A DNA stretch of 64,000 nt, taken from assembly GCA_034211175.1 (NCBI GenBank), contig JAXHUH010000240.1, positions 2,393 through 66,392 on the forward strand. The letters run 5' to 3'. Both the position numbers and the translations under genes were made by a program. The notes under the pieces were generated by a model that ran no database searches, had not been told where the DNA came from, and saw only the letters and a list, made by a program, of their open reading frames with translations. This document shows positions 231 to 9,763 of this stretch, piece after piece (position 1 is the stretch's first letter; every line of letters starts with the position of its first letter). This DNA comes from Actinomycetota bacterium. GTDB taxonomy: Bacteria; Actinomycetota; Acidimicrobiia; Acidimicrobiales; CAIXPF01.

Positions 231-2028
231 AAAGCTAGCTGGTGCGTGTCCGACACCGCTGACGCGAGGATCAGTTGCTCGGTGCGGCAGGTCGCAGGGA
301 AACCGCCCCGCATGGGCAGCGAAGGTGTCGCGTGCCGTCACCCCCTTACCTTCCTGGTGGGCCTTGAGCGATGCTTTGGGTCTGGGAAGTCCGGTGGTGC
401 CGGTATGGCTCACTGCCCCCTGTCGAGTTCATGGCCTGGGGGGTGTTGCCGCCGGTGCTGTCGGGTGCGTCGACCTCTGATGGGGACAGGCGATCGATCG
501 CTGGTTCGTAAGGTGGATGTCGGCGTGCGTGCCCTGCCCGTGACTTCCCGCTGCTGGAAGCACCGTTGGGGAGGTAACGCTGGTGGCGACACCGGACGAC
601 GTGAACGTGTGGGTCGGTCTCGATGTCGGCAAGTCCGACCATCACGGCGACGTCATCGACGACGACGGCAACGCCTTGTTCGACCGGCGGGTCCACAACG
701 ACGAAGCCGACCTCGACGCGCTCTTCGACCGGGCCGGCGGCTACGGCACGGTCGGGTTGGTGATCGACCAGCCGGGCTCGATCGCCCAGCTGGCAATCGC
801 GGTTGCGGCTCGCCGTCAGATCCCCGTGGCGTATGTGCCCGGTCTGGTCATGCGCCGCGCTGCGGATCTCTACCCGGGTGAAGCGAAGACCGACCGGCGT
901 GACGCCGCTGTGTTGGCCGATGTCGGCCGCCGCTGGCGCAACCAGATCCACTGGCTCGACCTCGACACCGCCGATGAGCTGTTGGCCCAACTGCGGGTGC
1001 TCAACGGCTACGACGTCGACCTTGCCGCCGACGCCAACCGAGTGTCGAACCGGCTGCGGGACTCGCTGACCTCGATCTCCCCAGCGTTGGAGCGAGCACT
1101 CGGAGCCCAACTGCGCCACGCCGGGGTACGGGACCTGCTCTGCCGCTACCCGACCCCGACCGCTCTCGCGAAGGCCGGGCGGGCCCGGATCGTCAAGACC
1201 ATCAAACGGCGCTCGCCCCGCCTTGCCGACAAGACCGCCACGGCGGTCCTCGACGCGCTCGCCGCGCAGACCGTGACCCTGCCCGCCGAAGCCGCGGTCG
1301 GTCAGATCATCTCCGAGCTCGCCGCCGAGCTCGACCGCATCCACGAACGCCGCGACAGCCTCGAGTCTCAGATCGAGGCGGCGTTCACCGCGCACCCTTT
1401 CGGCCGGCTGCTGTTGACGATGCCCGGGATCGGACCGCGGACAGGAGCGAGGATCCTCGCCGAGATCGGTGACGGCTCCCGCTTCAGTTCGGGATCGAAG
1501 CTCGCCAGCTACGCCGGCATCGCCCCAGTGGTCCGACAGTCCGGCACCAGCCTCCGCGGCGAGACCAAGAGCCGCAAAGGCAACCACCGGCTCAAGAACG
1601 CCATGTTCATCGCCGCGTTCGCGTCGCTCTCCGCACCCGAATCCCGAGCCTTCTACGACCGCAAACGAGCCGAAGGCAAGAGACACAACGCCGCCGTCAT
1701 CTGCCTCGCCCGCCGCCGCTGCAACGTCATCTTCGCCATGCTCCGCAACCAACAGCCCTACCAGCCACCCCAACCCAACCCCCTCCCCAAAGCCGCCTGA
1801 AACCCTTGACAAAACGATGGGGACACCCCCCGCACTGGGTCGGCGTGGCGGATCGAGTGCGAGCATCCCAACAAGGCGGCACACTCGCCTCATGAGTGCG
1901 CACCGCCGGTATGTCGAATGGGTCTCGGCCGCCGCCGAACCCCGCCATGTGCACCGGTGTGTGCAGGGTGGGTGTGCAGGCACCCTGACCTGCGCAGATG
2001 CGAATCGTCTGGCCTCCGAGCTCCCGAC
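231..2028 (+). mobile_element. IS110-family insertion sequence. This is the maximal interval that contains it; the true ends are unresolved.
   Basis: Intact IS110-type transposase ORF at 583..1800, preceded by about 350 nt of non-coding DNA. Bounded on the left by unrelated partial ORF fragments (<=230) and on the right by the stop of a small minus-strand gene (2029). No terminal inverted repeats seen, as expected for IS110. Confidence 0.6.
583..1800 (+). CDS. IS110-family (DEDD) transposase
   Basis: 405-aa intact ORF. GTG start with GGGGAGG about 9 nt upstream. N-terminal VGLDVGKSDHH motif and C-terminal MPGIGPRTGARILAEIGD..RF..SYAGIAPV..SG..KG motif are typical of IS110/IS116/IS902 transposases. 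Confidence 0.92.
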   Translation: MATPDDVNVWVGLDVGKSDHHGDVIDDDGNALFDRRVHNDEADLDALFDRAGGYGTVGLVIDQPGSIAQLAIAVAARRQIPVAYVPGLVMRRAADLYPGEAKTDRRDAAVLADVGRRWRNQIHWLDLDTADELLAQLRVLNGYDVDLAADANRVSNRLRDSLTSISPALERALGAQLRHAGVRDLLCRYPTPTALAKAGRARIVKTIKRRSPRLADKTATAVLDALAAQTVTLPAEAAVGQIISELAAELDRIHERRDSLESQIEAAFTAHPFGRLLLTMPGIGPRTGARILAEIGDGSRFSSGSKLASYAGIAPVVRQSGTSLRGETKSRKGNHRLKNAMFIAAFASLSAPESRAFYDRKRAEGKRHNAAVICLARRRCNVIFAMLRNQQPYQPPQPNPLPKAA

Positions 2029-2272: not shown

Positions 2273-2340
2273 GGTGTCGCCTCCTCGGATGATGGTGTGG
2301 CTCCTTGCTGTGCTGGGCAGTCGGGCAGGTTCCGGTGGGG

Positions 2341-2808
2341 TCAGGTCACCGGGATGCGGCGTGGCCGGTCGGCTTCGGGCTTGGGTACCCGGATGGTGAG
2401 CACGCCGTCGTCGTAGCCGGCGCTCACCTCGGCGTCGGGGTCCGCCGCGGGCAGGGTGACCTCGTAGTAGAAGCGGCCGGTGACCCGGGTGCGGCGCCGC
2501 AAGATGCCGGTGCGTTCCTTCTCCTTGCGCTCACCGGACACGGTGAGCTGGCGGCCCGACAGGGTCACGTCGATGTCGTTGCGCTTCACGCCGGGCAGCT
2601 CGACTTCGACCAGGTAGGCGTCGTCGGTCTCCTCGACGTCGGCCAGCGGGGTGAACCCGAGTCCCTGACCGTCGAGCAGCGACGGGAACCGGTCCCAGCT
2701 GTCGAGGTACCGGCGAAGACGCTGGTTGAGGGCGTCGAGCTCTGCGAAGGGATCGAAGTGTGCCGGCTCGGGGCGGGACAGGCTGGTGGAACGTCGCTCG
2801 GGCAGCAT
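2341..2808 (-). CDS. Hsp20/alpha-crystallin family small heat-shock protein
   Basis: 155 aa. Alpha-crystallin domain motifs (DVEETDDAYLVEVELPGVKRNDIDVTL...LTVSGERK...GVLTIRVPK). GAGGAGG RBS. Confidence 0.93.
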   Translation of the reverse strand: MLPERRSTSLSRPEPAHFDPFAELDALNQRLRRYLDSWDRFPSLLDGQGLGFTPLADVEETDDAYLVEVELPGVKRNDIDVTLSGRQLTVSGERKEKERTGILRRRTRVTGRFYYEVTLPAADPDAEVSAGYDDGVLTIRVPKPEADRPRRIPVT

Positions 2809-2853
2809 CGCTTCGGCTACCTCCTCTGGTGGTGATGTCGGTGTGTCGGGCGG

Positions 2854-2964
2854 GGGTGCCGACGGCTCGGCTCGCCCTGCTCGGGCTGGTCGAGCCAGTG
2901 CCGCGCATCCCGCGACGGGGACGGTGGGCGGCCGATGAGTAGGGGCCCGTCACCGTCGGCACCC
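2854..2964 (-). other. Structured spacer between the tandem hsp20 genes, closed by a 12-bp perfect inverted repeat
   Basis: GGGTGCCGACGG (2854-2865) pairs with CCGTCGGCACCC (2953-2964). An inner GGCTCG/CGAGCC pair is also present. Lies in the 5' leader of the downstream hsp20. Confidence 0.35.
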
Positions 2965-2983
2965 GGGCTGGGTCAGCGCCGGG

Positions 2984-3397
2984 TCAGGAGCTGATGGCGG
3001 CTTGGCCCGAACCGACGCTGATCTTGCGGGGCTTGGCCTGATCGGCCACCGGGACGGTGAGGGTGAGCACCCCGTGGTCGTAGTCGGCTTCGATGTGGTC
3101 GACATCGAGGCCCTCGCCCAGGAACAGGGATCGGGTGAAGGTGCCCTGCGGGCGCTCCGAGGCGATCACCTGCACGTCCTCGGCAGGCTCCCAGGACCGC
3201 TCCGCGCGCACGGTGAGCTGGTTCTTCTCGACGGTGACGTCGATGGAGTCGGGGTCGACGCCGGGCAAGTCGAACCGGGCGATCAGCCGGTCGTCCTCCC
3301 GGTAGGCGTCCATACCCATCAGGGTGTTGCGCCGGCTCGCGAGGCCTCCGTCGAAGAACCGGTCGAGCTCACGGAACGGATCGGTACGCATCAGCAT
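2984..3397 (-). CDS. Hsp20/alpha-crystallin family small heat-shock protein (second copy)
   Basis: 137 aa. MDAYREDDRLIARFDLPGVDPDSIDVTVEKNQLTVRAER...GVLTLTVPV. GGGAGGTGA RBS. Confidence 0.93.
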   Translation of the reverse strand: MLMRTDPFRELDRFFDGGLASRRNTLMGMDAYREDDRLIARFDLPGVDPDSIDVTVEKNQLTVRAERSWEPAEDVQVIASERPQGTFTRSLFLGEGLDVDHIEADYDHGVLTLTVPVADQAKPRKISVGSGQAAISS

Positions 3398-3608
3398 CTG
3401 CGCTCACCTCCCTCAACAGATGGTTGGTCGTCTCGTGACGTCTTCTTCCGAGACCGACCCTGTGCCGATGCCATCACATGACTTGACAATCAGACGCTGA
3501 GGAATATTCCCGGAGGAGTGAAAGTTCTTCGGGTTCGGGACCGCCAGTCCTGTGTGGTCTCGACCGAGTCGTTCGAACGGGCCGCTCGAGGAAGGGAGGT
3601 GACCGCCC

Positions 3609-4541
3609 GTGGAGGTCGACCCGGCCTGGCTGGAGACGGACTACTACGAGACCTTGGGTGTCTCACCTGTCGCCGAGCCGGGTGAGATCACCCGCGCGTA
3701 TCGGCGACGGGCCCGCCACCTGCACCCCGACGCCAGCTCCGATCCTGCGGCCGCCGACCGGTTCGCCGAGCTGACCGCGGCCTACGAGGTGCTGAGCGAC
3801 CCGGACCGCCGCGTCGCCTACGACCAGACCCGTCGCCAGGTCGATCGCGGCGTGCGCCGCCGCCCGGGGGGTGGCTACACGATCCGAGTCGACCACGTCG
3901 AAGGCCGCGAGACCGACCCCGCAAGCGCGGGTTCCCGGACCCGCCGCGTGCGCGTGAGGGATCGGTCGGGGTCGTCCACGAGGCGGATCCCGCCGTCACG
4001 GCCAGGCGCAGCGGCACGAGCCGAGGTGAAGTTGCCGTTCGCAGACGCGGTGCGGGGCACCACCGCTGCTGTCTCCGTGCCGGGTCGCGGCACCGTCACG
4101 GTACCGGTCCCCCCCGGGGTGGAGGACGGCCAGACGCTCCGAGTCCCGGTCAGCCCCCACTCCGACCCCAACGGCGCCGGTGACGACCTCGTGGTCACCG
4201 TCCACGTCGAAGACGACCAGCACTTCTCGCGCCGGGGCGACGACCTCACCCTCACCGTGCCCATCACGGTCACCGAGGCCATCCGCGGCACCAAGGTGAC
4301 CGTGCCCACCATCGAGAACCGGCCCGTCACCGTCCGCATCCCACCGGGAACACCCTCCGGTCGCACACTGCGGATCCCCGGGCGGGGTGTCCCCACCGCC
4401 ACGCGACGGGGCGACCTGTTGATCACCGTGCAGATCCACGTCCCCACCGACCTCGACGAGGGACACAACCAGCTCATCGATGAGCTCGCCCGATGGGAGG
4501 ACCCGACCGGGCTGCGCGCTCACCTGGAGGTGAACCCATGA
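3609..4541 (+). CDS. J-domain co-chaperone, class II (CbpA/DnaJ-like, no Cys-rich zinc-finger domain)
   Basis: 310 aa. J domain DYYETLGV...AYRRRARHLHPD. DnaJ C-terminal beta-domains present, but no CxxCxGxG repeats. AGGGAGG RBS. Confidence 0.88.
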   Translation: MEVDPAWLETDYYETLGVSPVAEPGEITRAYRRRARHLHPDASSDPAAADRFAELTAAYEVLSDPDRRVAYDQTRRQVDRGVRRRPGGGYTIRVDHVEGRETDPASAGSRTRRVRVRDRSGSSTRRIPPSRPGAAARAEVKLPFADAVRGTTAAVSVPGRGTVTVPVPPGVEDGQTLRVPVSPHSDPNGAGDDLVVTVHVEDDQHFSRRGDDLTLTVPITVTEAIRGTKVTVPTIENRPVTVRIPPGTPSGRTLRIPGRGVPTATRRGDLLITVQIHVPTDLDEGHNQLIDELARWEDPTGLRAHLEVNP

Positions 4542-4891
4542 CCGAGCACCCCAACGGCCACGACGGCGGCGTGTACGTGATCTCAGCCGCCGCCGAGCTC
4601 ACCGGCGTCAAGCCCCAGACCCTGCGCTCCTATGAGCGCCACGGTCTGGTGCATCCCGCCCGCACCGGTGGGGGCGAACGTCGCTACAGCGACCAGGACC
4701 TCACCAGGATCGCCCGCATCGCCGAGCTGACCGACCAGGGCGTCAACCTCGCCGGCATCGCCCACATCCTCGAACTCGAAGACCGCATCCGAGGCCTGGA
4801 CCACCAACTCGAGCAAGCCACACGTGGCACGGACCGCTCGGCGGGTGACCCATCAACGGTGCCCGCAGCGCCGAGAGGAGGTGAACCATGA
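4538..4891 (+). CDS. hspR: MerR-family heat-shock regulator HspR/CbpM-like
   Basis: ATGA overlap with the J-protein stop. MerR HTH VYVISAAAELTGVKPQTLRSYERHGLVHPARTGGGERRYSDQDL. Sits directly after a dnaJ-type gene, as in dnaK-hspR / cbpA-cbpM operons. Confidence 0.88.
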   Translation: MTEHPNGHDGGVYVISAAAELTGVKPQTLRSYERHGLVHPARTGGGERRYSDQDLTRIARIAELTDQGVNLAGIAHILELEDRIRGLDHQLEQATRGTDRSAGDPSTVPAAPRGGEP

Positions 4892-5219
4892 GCATCCGAG
4901 TCTACGTGAGGACCCACGGGCCCGACACCGTCGTCGCCCTCGACGGCGCCGTCGACTGGACTTGGTCGTCCATCTCGGTGACAGCATCGCAACCGTCGCA
5001 GAGACCACCACCGGCCGGTTGCTGCTCGACATCGACGACCTCACCCTCCTCGACGACGGGGGCTTCGGCGACCTCGTCGACCAGCTCGTGGCCATCGCCG
5101 ACGGACGCAGCGGCATCATCGCCCGGCGCATCCGCACCCGCCAAGTCCTCCACCGCTGGGGCGTCGGCCACCGGATACCGGTGTACGACTCCTTGCCCGA
5201 GCCTGGAGGAACGCCGTGA
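4888..5219 (+). pseudogene. STAS-domain (anti-sigma-factor-antagonist-like) protein; one-base frame break near 4956
   Basis: ATGA overlap with the hspR stop. Frame 1 gives MSIRVYVRTHGPDTVVALDGAVD. Frame 0 continues LDLVVHLGDSIATVAETTTGRLLLDIDDLTLLDDGGFGDLVDQLVAIA... to TGA at 5219. Joined, this reads as a typical roughly 110-aa STAS fold. Both parts have high GC3. Confidence 0.5.
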
Positions 5220-5773
5220 GCACCCATGCCCGTCGCCTCCCGCTCGCCATCGAGATCGCCCGTGAAGGCCGCGAAGGCCGCAAGGTGGGCACGATCCTCA
5301 CCATCGGTGACGAGAACGCCGTCCTCGCCCGCAGTCGATGCCTGATCCTCGACCCCCTCGCCGGACACGCTGCGGAAGCCAAGCAACTCAGCGACCCGGA
5401 TCTGCGCGAGACCGTCAAGGAGCTGGCCCAGCTCGACGGTGGCTTCATCGTCGCCGCCGACGGAACCGTGCTGTCCGCCACCCGGTACTTCGCCGCTGAC
5501 CTGGAAGACGCGGAACCGATGCTCGGCCTGGGCAGCCGCCACATCGCAGCCGCCTCGATCACCCGCCAGACCAACGCCCTGGCCGTCGTCGTGTCCGAGA
5601 GCTCGATCGTGCGACTCTTCGAACACGGTCGCCTCACCGCCGAGGTCCTCCCCGAGCTGTGGCTGCTGAGCCGCTTCAGCACCCACGTCCAAGGGCCTCG
5701 CCTGGCCACCCACCCCGCCGAGAACATCGCGGTGGTGTCACGCACGGAGGAGCCTGACGGCGCCGACAGCTGA
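5216..5773 (+). CDS. DisA_N / diadenylate-cyclase (DAC) domain protein, soluble, with non-canonical catalytic motifs
   Basis: GTGA overlap with the STAS stop. 185 aa aligning by eye to the CdaA/DisA DAC core: LDGGFIVAADG (DGA motif is DGG) and GLGSRHIAAASIT...AVVVSESS (RHR motif is RHI). Confidence 0.75.
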   Translation: MSTHARRLPLAIEIAREGREGRKVGTILTIGDENAVLARSRCLILDPLAGHAAEAKQLSDPDLRETVKELAQLDGGFIVAADGTVLSATRYFAADLEDAEPMLGLGSRHIAAASITRQTNALAVVVSESSIVRLFEHGRLTAEVLPELWLLSRFSTHVQGPRLATHPAENIAVVSRTEEPDGADS

Positions 5774-5950
5774 GCTGCTACCGGGCGCGCTCCTCAGGAT
5801 CGCCGCGGCGCTGCAACTCTCGCCACCGATGACCGGGAACTGCCACCCTGCGGTAGTCGCCAACGCAACAGCGCAGCCCACCGCACCTATGCCGGGCGAT
5901 CTTTGCCCGCGACGCATGTCCGGTACTCGACACCCGCATCGGCGTCCGCC

Positions 5951-6268
5951 GAGATCGCCTGCACGGTGGCAGCGTCCTGGCTTCGGCGCAACGAGCCGAA
6001 CCAGGCGCTCGCCATCTCGCTGCGCAAGGCGGGCTTCCTGCATGGGAGCGGATCCTCGAAGCACCGAGGACGCGGCTACCTGTCCCGGCTGGGACCCGGC
6101 ACGCTGCGCCGGGCACTGTGCGAAGCCGGCCAGTGCGCGGCCAAGGCGACCGGCCCCGACCGCGACTGCTACCGGTCGGTCGAGCAACGCCACGACGGCA
6201 AGCTCGCCGCGATCTGCGTGACCCGCAAGCCCGCCCGTCGCAGCCACCACATCGTCCGGGACATGGTC
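5951..6268 (+). pseudogene. C-terminal fragment of a second IS110-family transposase (remnant)
   Basis: The translation SGSSKHRGRGYLSRLGPGTLRRALCEAGQCAAK...GKLAAICVTRKPARRSHHIVRDM matches the Transposase_20 C-terminal pattern (SG..RG.ISK.G...LRRAL..AA...  A.ARKL). No N-terminal DEDD domain upstream. Confidence 0.5.
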
Positions 6269-6481
6269 CCGACAGGTGTACGCCATCCCCGACATCTGAC
6301 CGATCTCGAACCATCAGCTGTCGGCTCCGGTGGCGGCCGGGCGGAGCCATGCGCGATCAAGGCCTGGACGGGAACCCGTCACACAAGAAGCGCTCGGGTC
6401 GCGGCCTGGCCTCAGCCCCTCACCTCATCGGTGCATCCAGGCTCAGCGTGGCGGCGACGTGGGAAGGAGTTCGCACCGGCC

Positions 6482-7960
6482 ATGCCGAAACGTCACACCA
6501 TGGAAGGACCTCGGACGGAGAGCGGGAGCGCCACTGCTCGTAGGGCAAGGCGGGCGTCGGTGCGGAGGCTCTGCCTCGTCAGTGTTGCGGCCGTCGCAGT
6601 GGTGCTGATGGCGGCGGTGCCGGCGCACCAGGCGGCCGCGCAGGACTCGTCCTTCGGGGTCGGATCGGGCCGCGCGTCGGCAAAGTACCTCAAGGTTGGC
6701 CCGTCCCGGGGATCGCTGGCCCTCGCGCCAACAGTGGGTCTTGCTCTGTCCGATTTCCTGAACACCCGTGGTCGCGGGGACGTGCGGACCGTCGACTTCG
6801 CTGCCCTGGCGGACTCCCTGCCTCCCGAGCTCTTGGACGCAATGCCCGCGGTCAAGGTCGAGTCCACGGACGATGGTTCCGAGGACGGCCAGACCGCCAC
6901 CCTCGGCACACCCGCCGAGGTGCCGGTTGGATTGTCGGCTGCGACGCTGCGGGCATCTGCCGGCGCCGCGCCGTTCGGCCGGTCGAGCTTCGAGACGGCG
7001 CCGGTCGATCTCGAGGTGCTGGCCGTCAGCGGCGGCACGGCCGAGGCGTTCAGCGGAGTGGTCGACGGAAACATCAGGGAGGCCGTGGGTACCGTCGAGA
7101 TCGGCAAGATCGACATCGCTGGAGGAGCGCTCGTCCTCGAGGGTCTGCGCTGGAAGGCGGTGCACCGCACCGGTGCAGAGTCGGTCGAGCAGGGCACGTT
7201 CACCGTGGGCTCGGTTTCGGTGGCCGGACAGCGCTTCGCCGCCCCCGACGGCGCCGAGCAGCCATTGGCGGACGCCCTTGCCGCCGCCGAGCCGCTGCTC
7301 GCACCGCTGGGCCTCCAGATCACGCTCCCGAAGCCACGGATCGAGAGTGGGATCGTTGAGATGACACCTCTCCGCATCCGGGTGGCCGGCTCCGAGCTGG
7401 GGGCCGTGGTCGGACCGGTACTGGAGGGCGTGCAGCCGGTCCGGGACGCTCTGGTCGATGCGATCCGGAGTGGCACCGAGGACGTCGACGCCGCCATCCT
7501 GCTGGCCGACGTCGCCCTCGGGGTCCTGGCTGGTGGTTCCACCCTCGACATCGAGCTCGGCGGGGTGACGGCCCAGACGGCCGAACCCGCCGAAGCGTTC
7601 ACCTTCGGCGGCGGTTTCGATCTGCCCCCGCCGACAGCGCCCGGCTCGGGCGCTCTGGACATCGGGGCGGCGCCGACGAGCGCAACGTCGATCGACAGCA
7701 CTTCGACACTGCAGTCGTCGCCGACGTCGCTGACGTCGCCGACGCCGCCGACGTCGCCAGCGCCGATGGCTGAGGCAGGTACCGGTGGGGCCACCGACGA
7801 CACCGGCATCGGCGCCTCCACGGTTCCGGTTTCGTCGGCAGGCACCGCAGGCGGCGCCGGCCCGCTCCTCCTCATCGGCTTGGCCGCCGCCGCAGCCGCC
7901 GTGGCCGCCGGAGCCGTGGACTACCGGCGTCTCCTGCGACGCCCCATGCTCCCGGCCTGA
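6482..7960 (+). CDS. Secreted protein of unknown function with an S/T/P-rich stalk and a C-terminal TM anchor
   Basis: ATG with GGGAAGGAG upstream. Signal peptide ...VAAVAVVLMAAVPAHQAAAQD. C-terminus is SPTSLTSPTPPTSPAP...GPLLLIGLAAAAAAVAAGAVDYRRLLRRP. No LPXTG motif. Confidence 0.72.
   Translation: MPKRHTMEGPRTESGSATARRARRASVRRLCLVSVAAVAVVLMAAVPAHQAAAQDSSFGVGSGRASAKYLKVGPSRGSLALAPTVGLALSDFLNTRGRGDVRTVDFAALADSLPPELLDAMPAVKVESTDDGSEDGQTATLGTPAEVPVGLSAATLRASAGAAPFGRSSFETAPVDLEVLAVSGGTAEAFSGVVDGNIREAVGTVEIGKIDIAGGALVLEGLRWKAVHRTGAESVEQGTFTVGSVSVAGQRFAAPDGAEQPLADALAAAEPLLAPLGLQITLPKPRIESGIVEMTPLRIRVAGSELGAVVGPVLEGVQPVRDALVDAIRSGTEDVDAAILLADVALGVLAGGSTLDIELGGVTAQTAEPAEAFTFGGGFDLPPPTAPGSGALDIGAAPTSATSIDSTSTLQSSPTSLTSPTPPTSPAPMAEAGTGGATDDTGIGASTVPVSSAGTAGGAGPLLLIGLAAAAAAVAAGAVDYRRLLRRPMLPA
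7718..7762 (+). repeat. Five imperfect 9-bp tandem units (TCGCCGACG-like) encoding the (S/P)(P/L)(T/A) stalk
   Basis: Read directly: tcgccgacg tcgctgacg tcgccgacg ccgccgacg tcgccagcg, in frame with the CDS. Confidence 0.6.
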
Positions 7961-8032: not shown

Positions 8033-9763
8033 GTGCAGCCGCATCCGAACCTTCCGAGTCCCGCGGGCAGAGTCCTGCGGGGCTACGCACCGGTCGCCAT
8101 CCTCGGCGTGCTCTTCGCCCTCATGGCGGCGACCGTGCCCTCCACCTACTCCGATCAAGGCCTCGCCACCACCGGGTCGGGCGGGGGGCCCACCGCCTCC
8201 TTCGAATCGAACTCCGGACCCCAGCTCGACCGCTCAGGAACTGGCGGGACCGGAGGGGAGGACGCAGCGTCTGGTCCCTCCGGTAGCTCTGGTGACGCGG
8301 GCGGTGTCGCAGCTGACGGGACCGCCGGCAGCGGTCCTGAGGTCACAACCGGTGGTGGTGGTGGTGCTGGTGGTGGCAGCGGCGCTGCGCCCGCCGCAGG
8401 CCAGCAGCCCTGTGCCGATCGTCCGGTGCAGATCCCGGGTGACCCGTACTCGCCGCCGTGCTTCGAGTTCTCCGGCGACAACGGCGGGGCAACAGCCAAG
8501 GGCGTGACCGCCGAGGAGATCATCGTGTCGGCCCGCATCCTCGACGAGAAGGGCTTCCAGCAGACGCTGGCCACCCTGGCCGGTGCCGACATCGTGGACG
8601 GTCCCGAGGACGTGAAGCACACCATCTCGGCGCTGGCCGAGTACTTCAACAGCCGGATGCAGTTCTACGGGCGTCAGATGTCGATCAAGTTCTACAACGG
8701 CAAGGGATCGGGGGTGAACGAGCTGCAGGGTGCCGGCCAAGCCGAGGCGGAGGCCGACGCCATCACTGCTGCCGAGGAGATCGGTGCCTTCGCCGAGATC
8801 AACGCCGGCTCCGCGCCGTTCGCCGACGCCCTGGCCCGCAAGCAGGTGATCGCGTTCGGCACGCCGTACCTGTCCCGCAACTGGCACGTCGAACGTCGAC
8901 CGTACAACTGGAGCGTCGCCACGGACTGCTCGATCATCGTGGAGTCGGTGGGCGAGTTCGCCAACCAGACGCTGGCCAACACGCCGGCGGTGTTCGCCGG
9001 GCCCGGTCTGAAGGACAAGCCCCGCAAGTTCGCGTTCTTCTCCCCGGAGAACCCGTGGTACGTCGACTGCGTCGACCAGGGCATCGCGATCGCGGAAGCG
9101 GCCGGCACCAAGGTCGATCAGCGGGTCACCTACCGGCTCGACATCGACTCGATGTCCAACCAGGCGGCCAGCATCATCACCAAGCTCAAGAGCGAGGGCA
9201 TCACCACGATCCTGTGCGGCTGCGACCCGATCATGCCGATCTTCTTGACGACCAAGGCGGCCGAGCAGGGCTACAACCCCGAATGGGTCGTGGCCGGCAC
9301 TGCGCTGTCCGACATTGACCTGGTCGGCCAGCTCTACGACCAGGACCAGTGGTCCCGGGCCTTCGGCGTCAGCTACCTGAGCTCGTTCCTGCCCATCGAA
9401 TCCGGGATCGGCTACAGCGCCTACAAGAGCGTGCGCAACGACGAGCCGGCCTTCGCGGTCGAGACGATCTACTCCCAGATGTACCAACTCGCCCTCGGCA
9501 TCCAGATGGCCGGCCCGAATCTGACGCCGGAGACCTACGAGCAGGGCATGTTCGCCTACCCGGGCGGCACCGGCCCGTTCGGGACGTGGGGCTTCGACGC
9601 CGACAGCTACACCCCCACCCAGGACTACCGGGTCATCTGGTGGGATCCCGAGGCGGTGTCGCCGATGAACGGCAAGCGCGGCGCCTACATCGAGGCCTAC
9701 GACGGGCGTCGCTTCAAGAAGGGCGAGCTCCCCGCATCGAACCAGCCCCCGGTGTTCCGATGA
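8033..9763 (+). CDS. ABC transporter substrate-binding protein, LivK/type-1 periplasmic-binding fold, TM-anchored with a Gly/Ser-rich linker
   Basis: 576 aa. N-terminal TM VAILGVLFALMAATV, long G/S linker, then an SBP-like domain. First gene of a coupled SBP-permease-ATPase set. Confidence 0.83.
   Translation: MQPHPNLPSPAGRVLRGYAPVAILGVLFALMAATVPSTYSDQGLATTGSGGGPTASFESNSGPQLDRSGTGGTGGEDAASGPSGSSGDAGGVAADGTAGSGPEVTTGGGGGAGGGSGAAPAAGQQPCADRPVQIPGDPYSPPCFEFSGDNGGATAKGVTAEEIIVSARILDEKGFQQTLATLAGADIVDGPEDVKHTISALAEYFNSRMQFYGRQMSIKFYNGKGSGVNELQGAGQAEAEADAITAAEEIGAFAEINAGSAPFADALARKQVIAFGTPYLSRNWHVERRPYNWSVATDCSIIVESVGEFANQTLANTPAVFAGPGLKDKPRKFAFFSPENPWYVDCVDQGIAIAEAAGTKVDQRVTYRLDIDSMSNQAASIITKLKSEGITTILCGCDPIMPIFLTTKAAEQGYNPEWVVAGTALSDIDLVGQLYDQDQWSRAFGVSYLSSFLPIESGIGYSAYKSVRNDEPAFAVETIYSQMYQLALGIQMAGPNLTPETYEQGMFAYPGGTGPFGTWGFDADSYTPTQDYRVIWWDPEAVSPMNGKRGAYIEAYDGRRFKKGELPASNQPPVFR

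Follow-up and report, generated by a model that had tools for sequence, protein, structure and literature searches.

A family of stand-alone diadenylate cyclase-like proteins with recurring heat-shock gene neighborhoods, with a member in a damaged hspR operon of an Acidimicrobiales metagenome-assembled genome

We analyzed a 64,000-nucleotide stretch of DNA (the window) from contig JAXHUH010000240.1 of the Actinomycetota (Acidimicrobiia; Acidimicrobiales) metagenome-assembled genome (MAG) GCA_034211175.1. Our subject is a plus-strand, four-gene operon at positions 3609 to 5773 that encodes a J-protein, the heat-shock repressor HspR, a STAS-fold protein, and a protein with a diadenylate cyclase (DAC) domain. 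We favor, with moderate confidence, the explanation that this is an accessory heat-shock locus carrying a member of a family of stand-alone, probably active, stress-coexpressed synthases of cyclic di-AMP (c-di-AMP), and that here the member sits in the third hspR locus of its genome, which has partly decayed. c-di-AMP is known mainly from osmotic, cell wall, and DNA damage signaling. If our explanation is true, a widespread family of cyclases without a sensor domain, encoded beside hsp20, J-protein, HtrA, and FtsH genes in several phyla, would link protein-folding stress to c-di-AMP, and the RHR motif would not be obligatory for diadenylate cyclases. The recurring heat-shock neighborhoods of this DAC-like family are of more interest than the exact hspR-STAS-DAC gene order. 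The window itself is of less value, since its locus is damaged and its precise gene order is lineage specific.

The last gene of the operon (5216 to 5773, plus strand) encodes a 185-amino-acid (aa), stand-alone, DacZ-like protein. An earlier sequence-only reading of this DNA gave the protein a DAC fold, and we found that this assignment holds. The protein matches PF02457 with 64.1 bits (cutoff, 27) over positions 3 to 118 of the 119-position model. Its AF2 model has a pLDDT of 87, and the top Foldseek matches are DisA, CdaM, and CdaA (probability, 1.0; E value, about 1e-7; TM score, about 0.5 to 0.6). Two extra C-terminal strands in the model come from a conserved family extension of about 35 aa that lies outside the DacZ model. 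The motif name DGA is used for diadenylate cyclases in PMC6741144 and PMC3328451. As the sequence-only reading had noted, the window protein reads DGG and RHI at the DGA and RHR positions; it also carries SES.

That reading had treated DGG and RHI as an oddity of this gene, and here our results differ. The DAC-like family comprises at least 7,579 proteins at an E value of ≤0.001 among 8,000 scored, and it covers many phyla. Its genome matches lie in Thermodesulfobacteriota, Acidimicrobiia, Rubrobacter, Planctomycetota, Acidobacteriota, Verrucomicrobiota, and other groups, and the median length among the 120 best matches is 211 aa. Among the 120 nearest proteins, we found DGG in 113, DGA in 6, and DGR in 1, and in place of RHR, which occurs in none, we found RHI, RHL, RHV, RHH, and RHM. 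The 80 genome loci that we compared (the best 80 of 198 relatives found) carry DGA in 71 cases and DGG in 9. RHR is missing here also; the usual form is RHM (53 loci), and RHV, RHL, RHF, RHA, RHI, and RHW occur as well. Thus, RHR was found in 0 of 200 family members. On the basis of this census, we take RH followed by a residue other than Arg, mostly a hydrophobic one, to be a trait of the family and DGG to be a trait of the subclade nearest to the window protein.

The rest of the putative active site is strongly conserved. Across 66 sequences, the invariant residues are R-E-G-R-E-G (window residues 16 to 21), D74, G75, G106, R108, H109, S127, E128, and S129. Y91 is nearly invariant and aligns with the Tyr of a CdaA chain, and the conserved positions of the family as a whole align with DGA, (T)RHR, Tyr, and SE(E/S) of CdaA chains. 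The family hallmarks are EGREG(R/K), DG(A/G), RH plus a non-Arg and mostly hydrophobic residue, SES, and the C-terminal extension. We infer cyclase activity because the catalytic-site positions are invariant, because phosphoesterase genes adjoin some members (see below), and because the variant motif is shared with a protein of DacZ architecture.

That protein comes from the best-matching named kind of DAC, DacZ/CdaZ, which combines a DacZ_P or DACZ_N domain with a DAC domain. It is a bacterial DacZ_P-plus-DAC protein in another genome (G042) that reads DGA, RHW, SEGREGK, and SES, and it therefore has the RH-hydrophobic form, EGREG, and SES in common with the window family. In contrast to DacZ/CdaZ, the window family has no N-terminal sensor domain, carries the C-terminal extension of about 35 aa, and in its nearest subclade reads DGG and not DGA. 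Against the DacZ equivalog model NF041371 (cutoff, 430 bits), the window protein scored 104.6 bits, matching positions 131 to 268 of 270, and its relatives scored up to 137 bits. We found no DacZ structure in the PDB; PMC6741144 gives only DGA, and PMC10249747 gives no motif.

DisA, CdaA, and CdaM have the same fold, and their Asp-Gly, Ser/Thr-Arg-His, Tyr, and Ser-Glu positions align with those of the window protein. The window protein differs from them in its modest sequence similarity (E values of only about 1e-6), in having another residue for the last Arg of RHR, and in the absence of transmembrane, helix-hairpin-helix (HhH), or other appended domains. Twenty-two DAC families have been proposed (Galperin 2023, as cited in PMC13640721). 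PanS, the minimal DAC of the PanDA defense system, likewise has a DAC domain with no sensor domain. PMC13640721 describes PanS as a protein of about 150 aa that is paired with a 2TM-beta effector and found in defense islands; we saw none of these at the window locus. PanS matches the window protein marginally (E value, 0.22). We rejected a PanDA-type defense role because there is no 2TM-beta neighbor and because length and context differ.

We then compared gene neighborhoods at the same 80 loci, many of which are cut by contig ends. An hsp20 gene lies within the flanks of 11 of the 80 loci and within 3 kb at 9 of the 80. By a rough estimate, and not a computed control, a count of 11 would exceed chance, hsp20 genes being far too rare per genome. 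Four loci (L005, L010, L016, and L047) combine two hsp20 genes, a J-protein gene, and the DAC-like gene, in three different arrangements. In one of these, from a Trueperaceae MAG (L016, 2052 to 6766), ftsH immediately precedes the DAC-like gene and shares its strand, and an operon of hsp20, hsp20, and a CbpA-like dnaJ converges on it from the opposite strand. In an Acidimicrobiia MAG (L004, 2568 to 4525), hsp20 and a Xer-like gene are transcribed divergently, and the Xer-like gene runs into the start of the DAC-like gene. The layout matches that of the window operon but with another putative regulator, whose likeness to tyrosine recombinases we judged by eye from the translation. HtrA is encoded nearby at 5 of the 80 loci and thioredoxin at 4.

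Genes for putative c-di-AMP-degrading enzymes also recur. A DHH/DHHA1 gene lies nearby on the same strand at 9 of the 80 loci, directly upstream (66 to 169 nucleotides [nt]) in 8 of these, and the DHH motif is kept in all eight full-length copies. A metallophosphoesterase gene lies directly downstream of the DAC-like gene at four loci. Other neighbors are histidine kinase/response regulator hybrids (12 of 80) and AcrB (6 of 80). Taken together, this sequence context favors an enzyme over a pseudo-enzyme. In our literature searches for a diadenylate cyclase with Hsp20 or for c-di-AMP with HspR, we found no paper on such a link.

In the window, the DAC-like gene belongs to an operon that stands next to two hsp20 genes on the minus strand. 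These lie at 2341 to 2808 (155 aa; PF00011, 69.4 bits) and at 2984 to 3397 (137 aa; PF00011, 75.5 bits), and the second is divergent from the operon, with a 211-nt divergent promoter region (3398 to 3608) between it and the J-protein gene. The three junctions of the operon are 4-nt overlaps at exactly the places claimed earlier (ATGA at 4538, ATGA at 4888, and GTGA at 5216), and GGAGG-type Shine-Dalgarno sites can be read from the sequence 6 to 7 nt ahead of all four starts. The overlapping stop and start codons, together with ribosome-binding sites within the upstream genes, point to a translationally coupled four-gene operon. A consensus scan for promoters and terminators found no promoter and no terminator after 5773.

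The first gene (3609 to 4541) encodes a 310-aa J-protein. The earlier description of it as a J-protein of CbpA type that lacks the zinc finger is borne out by Pfam, which finds only DnaJ (73.8 bits) and DnaJ_C (123.4 bits). The HPD motif is kept, and there are no zinc finger domain, no G/F region, and no cysteines. The protein is CbpA-like in architecture only, since it scored 133.7 bits against the CbpA equivalog NF007618, below the cutoff of 403. It shares 51% identity with the DnaJ encoded on a metagenome contig, L093. As a query, it found only three distant loci, two of which (L095 and L096) are dnaK-dnaJ-hspR-clpB without a STAS or DAC-like gene.

The second gene (4538 to 4891) encodes a 117-aa MerR-family protein that passes the NCBIfam HspR equivalog cutoff (NF047375; 108.6 versus 105 bits). 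Thus, the hspR gene is genuine and, as the sequence-only reading had it, both dnaK and grpE are missing from this locus. The same MAG (G000) has dnaK-dnaJ-hspR-clpB on contig C46 and dnaK-dnaJ-hspR on contig C239, which makes the window operon a third hspR locus of the genome. Good HAIR-like sites lie upstream of both of these dnaK operons, and another precedes an hsp20 gene on contig C96. The window operon resembles the classical actinobacterial dnaK-grpE-dnaJ-hspR operon in having a genuine hspR gene beside a J-protein gene and heat-shock genes (hsp20) close by. It differs from the classical operon in lacking dnaK, grpE, clpB, the zinc finger of the J-protein, and a convincing HAIR site, and in adding two translationally coupled downstream genes, for the STAS and DAC-like proteins.

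The third gene (4888 to 5219, plus strand) has an anti-sigma-antagonist (STAS) fold and is broken, with 4888 to 4956 in frame 1 and 4953 to 5219 in the -1 frame. The translated fragment reaches 13 bits in Pfam (E value, 0.091) over its C-terminal 88 aa, below the cutoff of 22.6. We found close homologues in three other clusters among 5.8 billion proteins (P0122 to P0124). They are intact, have 109 to 110 aa, are 72 to 90% identical to the window protein, and scored 20.3 and 21.3 bits, also under the PF01740 cutoff of 22.6. The STAS fold itself was supported in two ways. A subfamily profile retrieved 110 proteins from 1.84 billion representatives, and 13 of the 26 of these that we scanned with Pfam pass the STAS cutoff (3 of the 26 are the close homologues themselves). 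In addition, an AF2 model of the intact P0122, which we used in place of the broken window gene, has a pLDDT of 91.4, and its top fold matches are RsbV, SpoIIAA, and TM1442 (TM scores, 0.72 to 0.81). From the model of the intact homologue and the profile matches to bona fide STAS proteins, we therefore take the STAS fold to be real and the same as that of the SpoIIAA/RsbV antagonists (PF01740). Unlike these antagonists, the window subfamily falls just under the Pfam cutoff, is rare, has Asp in place of the phospho-serine, and has no partner kinase or phosphatase gene nearby.

The sequence-only reading had noted a one-base break near 4956, and we found that this is a real 1-nt deletion. The frame breaks at 4956/4957, in codon 24. 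Because the intact homologues read GAVD(A/T)DLVVHLG across this site, the window must lack one base of codon 24. The identical break is present in a contig of run X1, the probable source run, and in an independent 629-nt contig of X2, a second sample of the same study, and the X2 contig has no differences from the window over 4844 to 5472. A relative in X4, from another study, has an extra A after 4956 plus a T-to-C change at 4957, which restores the frame. These comparisons use contigs, not raw reads. We rejected programmed -1 frameshifting at 4956 because there is no slippery heptamer and because relatives simply carry the extra base. We concluded that the STAS gene, judged from these assemblies, is a pseudogene in this organism.

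The DAC-like gene is also altered, which the sequence-only reading had missed. Its product has 185 aa, and the relative P0002 (91% identical) has 220; the whole difference is an N-terminal segment of 35 codons. The contig of the X4 relative parts from the window sequence immediately ahead of 5242, and translation of its loose end gives the SREVVFTLLE of the relatives; the breakpoint is near 5241/5242. The loss is in frame and spares the start codon, the ribosome-binding site, and all of the Pfam DAC domain.

The exact gene order is not widespread. No STAS gene adjoins the DAC-like gene at any of the 80 loci, and hspR lies nearby at only one (L019), so the hspR-STAS-DAC module is lineage specific. 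P0122 (STAS) and P0002 (DAC) both come from a 3,935-nt contig, and P0123 and P0235 both come from a 3,574-nt contig; the STAS and DAC-like genes are thus very probably on one contig in two close relatives. One metagenome locus (L093) has a STAS gene following hspR and clpB, and one genome gave a weak match (L094; 47% over 39 aa). With P0125 and P0127 as queries for more STAS loci, we found nothing. Of the earlier proposal of an hspR-STAS-DAC module, the STAS-DAC pairing stands as very probable in two close relatives, with hspR-clpB-STAS in L093. From the sequences at hand, the exact order seems limited to a small number of close relatives.

The genome has other DACs. It encodes a canonical DisA (DGA and RHR) on C265 and a second, full-length copy of the window family on C10 (P0004; 81% identical; L082, 512 to 2004). 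It also has four DACNK-plus-DAC paralogues of about 340 aa (L084 to L087; C14, 80238 to 80627; C128, 19159 to 19527; C200, 12674 to 13036; and C343, 4417 to 4782), with both domains found by Pfam in the C14 and C200 copies. Three of these copies have a degenerate DGA position (HDL, HDL, and VDR), and at the RHR position we read RHR or RHT. Seven PF02457 matches in one MAG make an unusually large DAC repertoire. All five other genomes that we tested have a second, higher-scoring DAC, so that with G000 a canonical DAC coexists with the family in six of six. We therefore rejected the idea that the window family is the sole cellular DAC in these genomes.

The mechanism that we propose can be stated as follows. 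The two hsp20 genes and the divergent operon for the J-protein, HspR, serine-less STAS, and DAC-like proteins would form an accessory heat-shock locus, and HspR would repress both the operon and the divergent hsp20 genes. The DAC-like family is predicted to be a catalytically active accessory diadenylate cyclase without a sensor domain, and because there is no sensor domain, we propose that its output is set mainly by transcription. The family would be placed in heat-shock or proteostasis regulons of many lineages under a local regulator, which may be HspR here and the Xer-like protein in the Acidimicrobiia MAG. The level of c-di-AMP would then rise under protein-folding stress, and the products of adjacent DHH/DHHA1 or metallophosphoesterase genes may remove it. 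In the window, the locus is partly decayed, with the STAS gene frameshifted and the N-terminal segment of the cyclase lost in frame.

Several observations weigh against this explanation. About 69 of the 80 loci have no heat-shock neighbor. The HAIR operator has the consensus CTTGAGT-N7-ACTCAAG, and with this consensus we found no HAIR site with three or fewer mismatches anywhere in the window. The best HAIR-like site in 2300 to 3700 is CTTGACAATCAGACGCTGAGG at 3482 to 3502, with 5 of 14 positions mismatched, which equals background and random windows. It lies inside a stretch (3440 to 3612) that aligns with the region upstream of the L093 dnaK. This site is no better than background, and HspR control of the window operon is proposed from gene content only. 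The family never has Arg at the last position of RHR. In the M. tuberculosis enzyme, changing RHR to AAA abolishes activity (PMC3328451), which would count against catalysis; G73A within DGA does not abolish it (PMC3328451). The DacZ likeness is drawn from the NF041371 model and the G042 architecture, not from the sequence of an experimentally proven DacZ/CdaZ. The window copy may itself be nonfunctional, because its N-terminal segment is lost and the neighboring STAS gene is a pseudogene. Finally, the window contig (C240) stands out in composition from the rest of its MAG (GC content, 70.0% versus 72.8%; tetranucleotide PC1 z, -3.4; PC3 z, -2.8), and this clouds statements on its kin. The contamination of the MAG is 9.5%, and C240 may be misbinned or a foreign island. 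We found neither the STAS gene nor the DAC-like gene in 40 relatives or in 300 genomes of the class, and because C240 is an outlier, their absence may reflect misbinning or horizontal acquisition.

The DAC-like protein could instead be a nucleotide-binding pseudo-enzyme that acts as a c-di-AMP or ATP sensor or as a regulator of chaperones and proteases. We consider this unlikely. It would account for the absence of RHR from all 200 members, for the change of DGA to DGG in 113 of the 120 proteins of the nearest subclade, and for the chaperone and protease neighbors, and the canonical DAC found in six of six genomes would supply a dedicated receptor with its ligand. However, the Asp, Gly, Arg-His, and Ser-Glu residues are invariant over many phyla, which goes beyond the usual need of a binding module. 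In addition, phosphoesterase genes adjoin the DAC-like gene at 13 of the 80 loci, which suggests a make-and-break pair, and the RH-hydrophobic form also occurs in the DacZ-architecture protein of G042.

It is likewise unlikely, in our judgment, that in this organism the operon ends in a STAS-DAC part that no longer functions and is decaying, left over from a heat-shock island gained by horizontal transfer, and that only the hsp20 genes, the J-protein gene, and hspR still matter. The STAS frameshift in contigs of two samples would fit such decay, as would the loss of 35 codons from the DAC-like gene when relatives keep both genes intact. An IS110-family transposase gene (583 to 1800, plus strand; DEDD_Tnp_IS110, 131 bits, and Transposase_20, 85 bits) lies 0.5 kb from the hsp20 genes and hints at regional mobility. 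The composition of C240, the absence of both genes from the 300 other genomes of the class, and the full-length second copy on C10 would fit as well. In contrast, the deletion in the DAC-like gene is in frame and leaves the start codon, Shine-Dalgarno site, and DAC domain whole, the remaining 185-aa frame has no stops or frameshifts, and its model folds confidently.

The sequence-only reading had suggested a STAS switch, and in a model of this kind, HspR or stress signals would act on the activity of the DAC-like protein through STAS partner switching. The probable pairing of the two genes in two close relatives, the place of the STAS gene after hspR-clpB in L093, and the joint loss of the STAS frame and the DAC N-terminal segment in the window would agree with this, but we regard it as improbable, since none of the 80 other loci has a STAS gene, L093 has STAS without a DAC-like gene, the Asp of LDDGGFG stands where the DSxG motif has its phosphorylatable serine, the operon has no kinase or PP2C/phosphatase gene, and the STAS gene is broken here. 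Because the serine is replaced and no such partner gene is present in the operon, the STAS protein is not a classical partner-switch substrate, and with the gene also a pseudogene, a working partner switch is impossible in this organism. When the complex of P0122 and P0002 was predicted with an alignment for both proteins, the score was 0.00 against a mark of 0.32, which weighs neither way.

A bolder form of our favored explanation, in which the family is a proteostasis-stress c-di-AMP synthase wired into the heat-shock regulons of different phyla, adds a role for the STAS protein. In the window clade, the serine-less STAS would control the cyclase through its N-terminal segment, and the joint loss of the two would be the footprint of this control. 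We hold this form to be quite doubtful.

Some further observations concern related loci and the flank of the operon. L093 (114 to 7795) is one long operon of dnaK, the CbpA-like dnaJ, hspR, clpB, STAS, a 124-aa Cys-rich open reading frame (ORF), and htrA. It has no DAC-like gene and no grpE between dnaK and dnaJ, and its Cys-rich ORF has no Pfam or NCBIfam match. On C10, P0004 is encoded directly downstream of a PAC2-family (proteasome-assembly-chaperone-like) gene, and a permease gene a few kilobases away looks, by eye, like the ABC permease gene downstream in the window. Beyond the operon, the ORF at 8033 to 9763 has no Pfam match at an E value of ≤0.001. The ORF that precedes it (5903 to 7960, plus strand; 685 aa from a TTG start) also has no Pfam match, and its product has an internal signal-peptide-like stretch and a C-terminal hydrophobic anchor.

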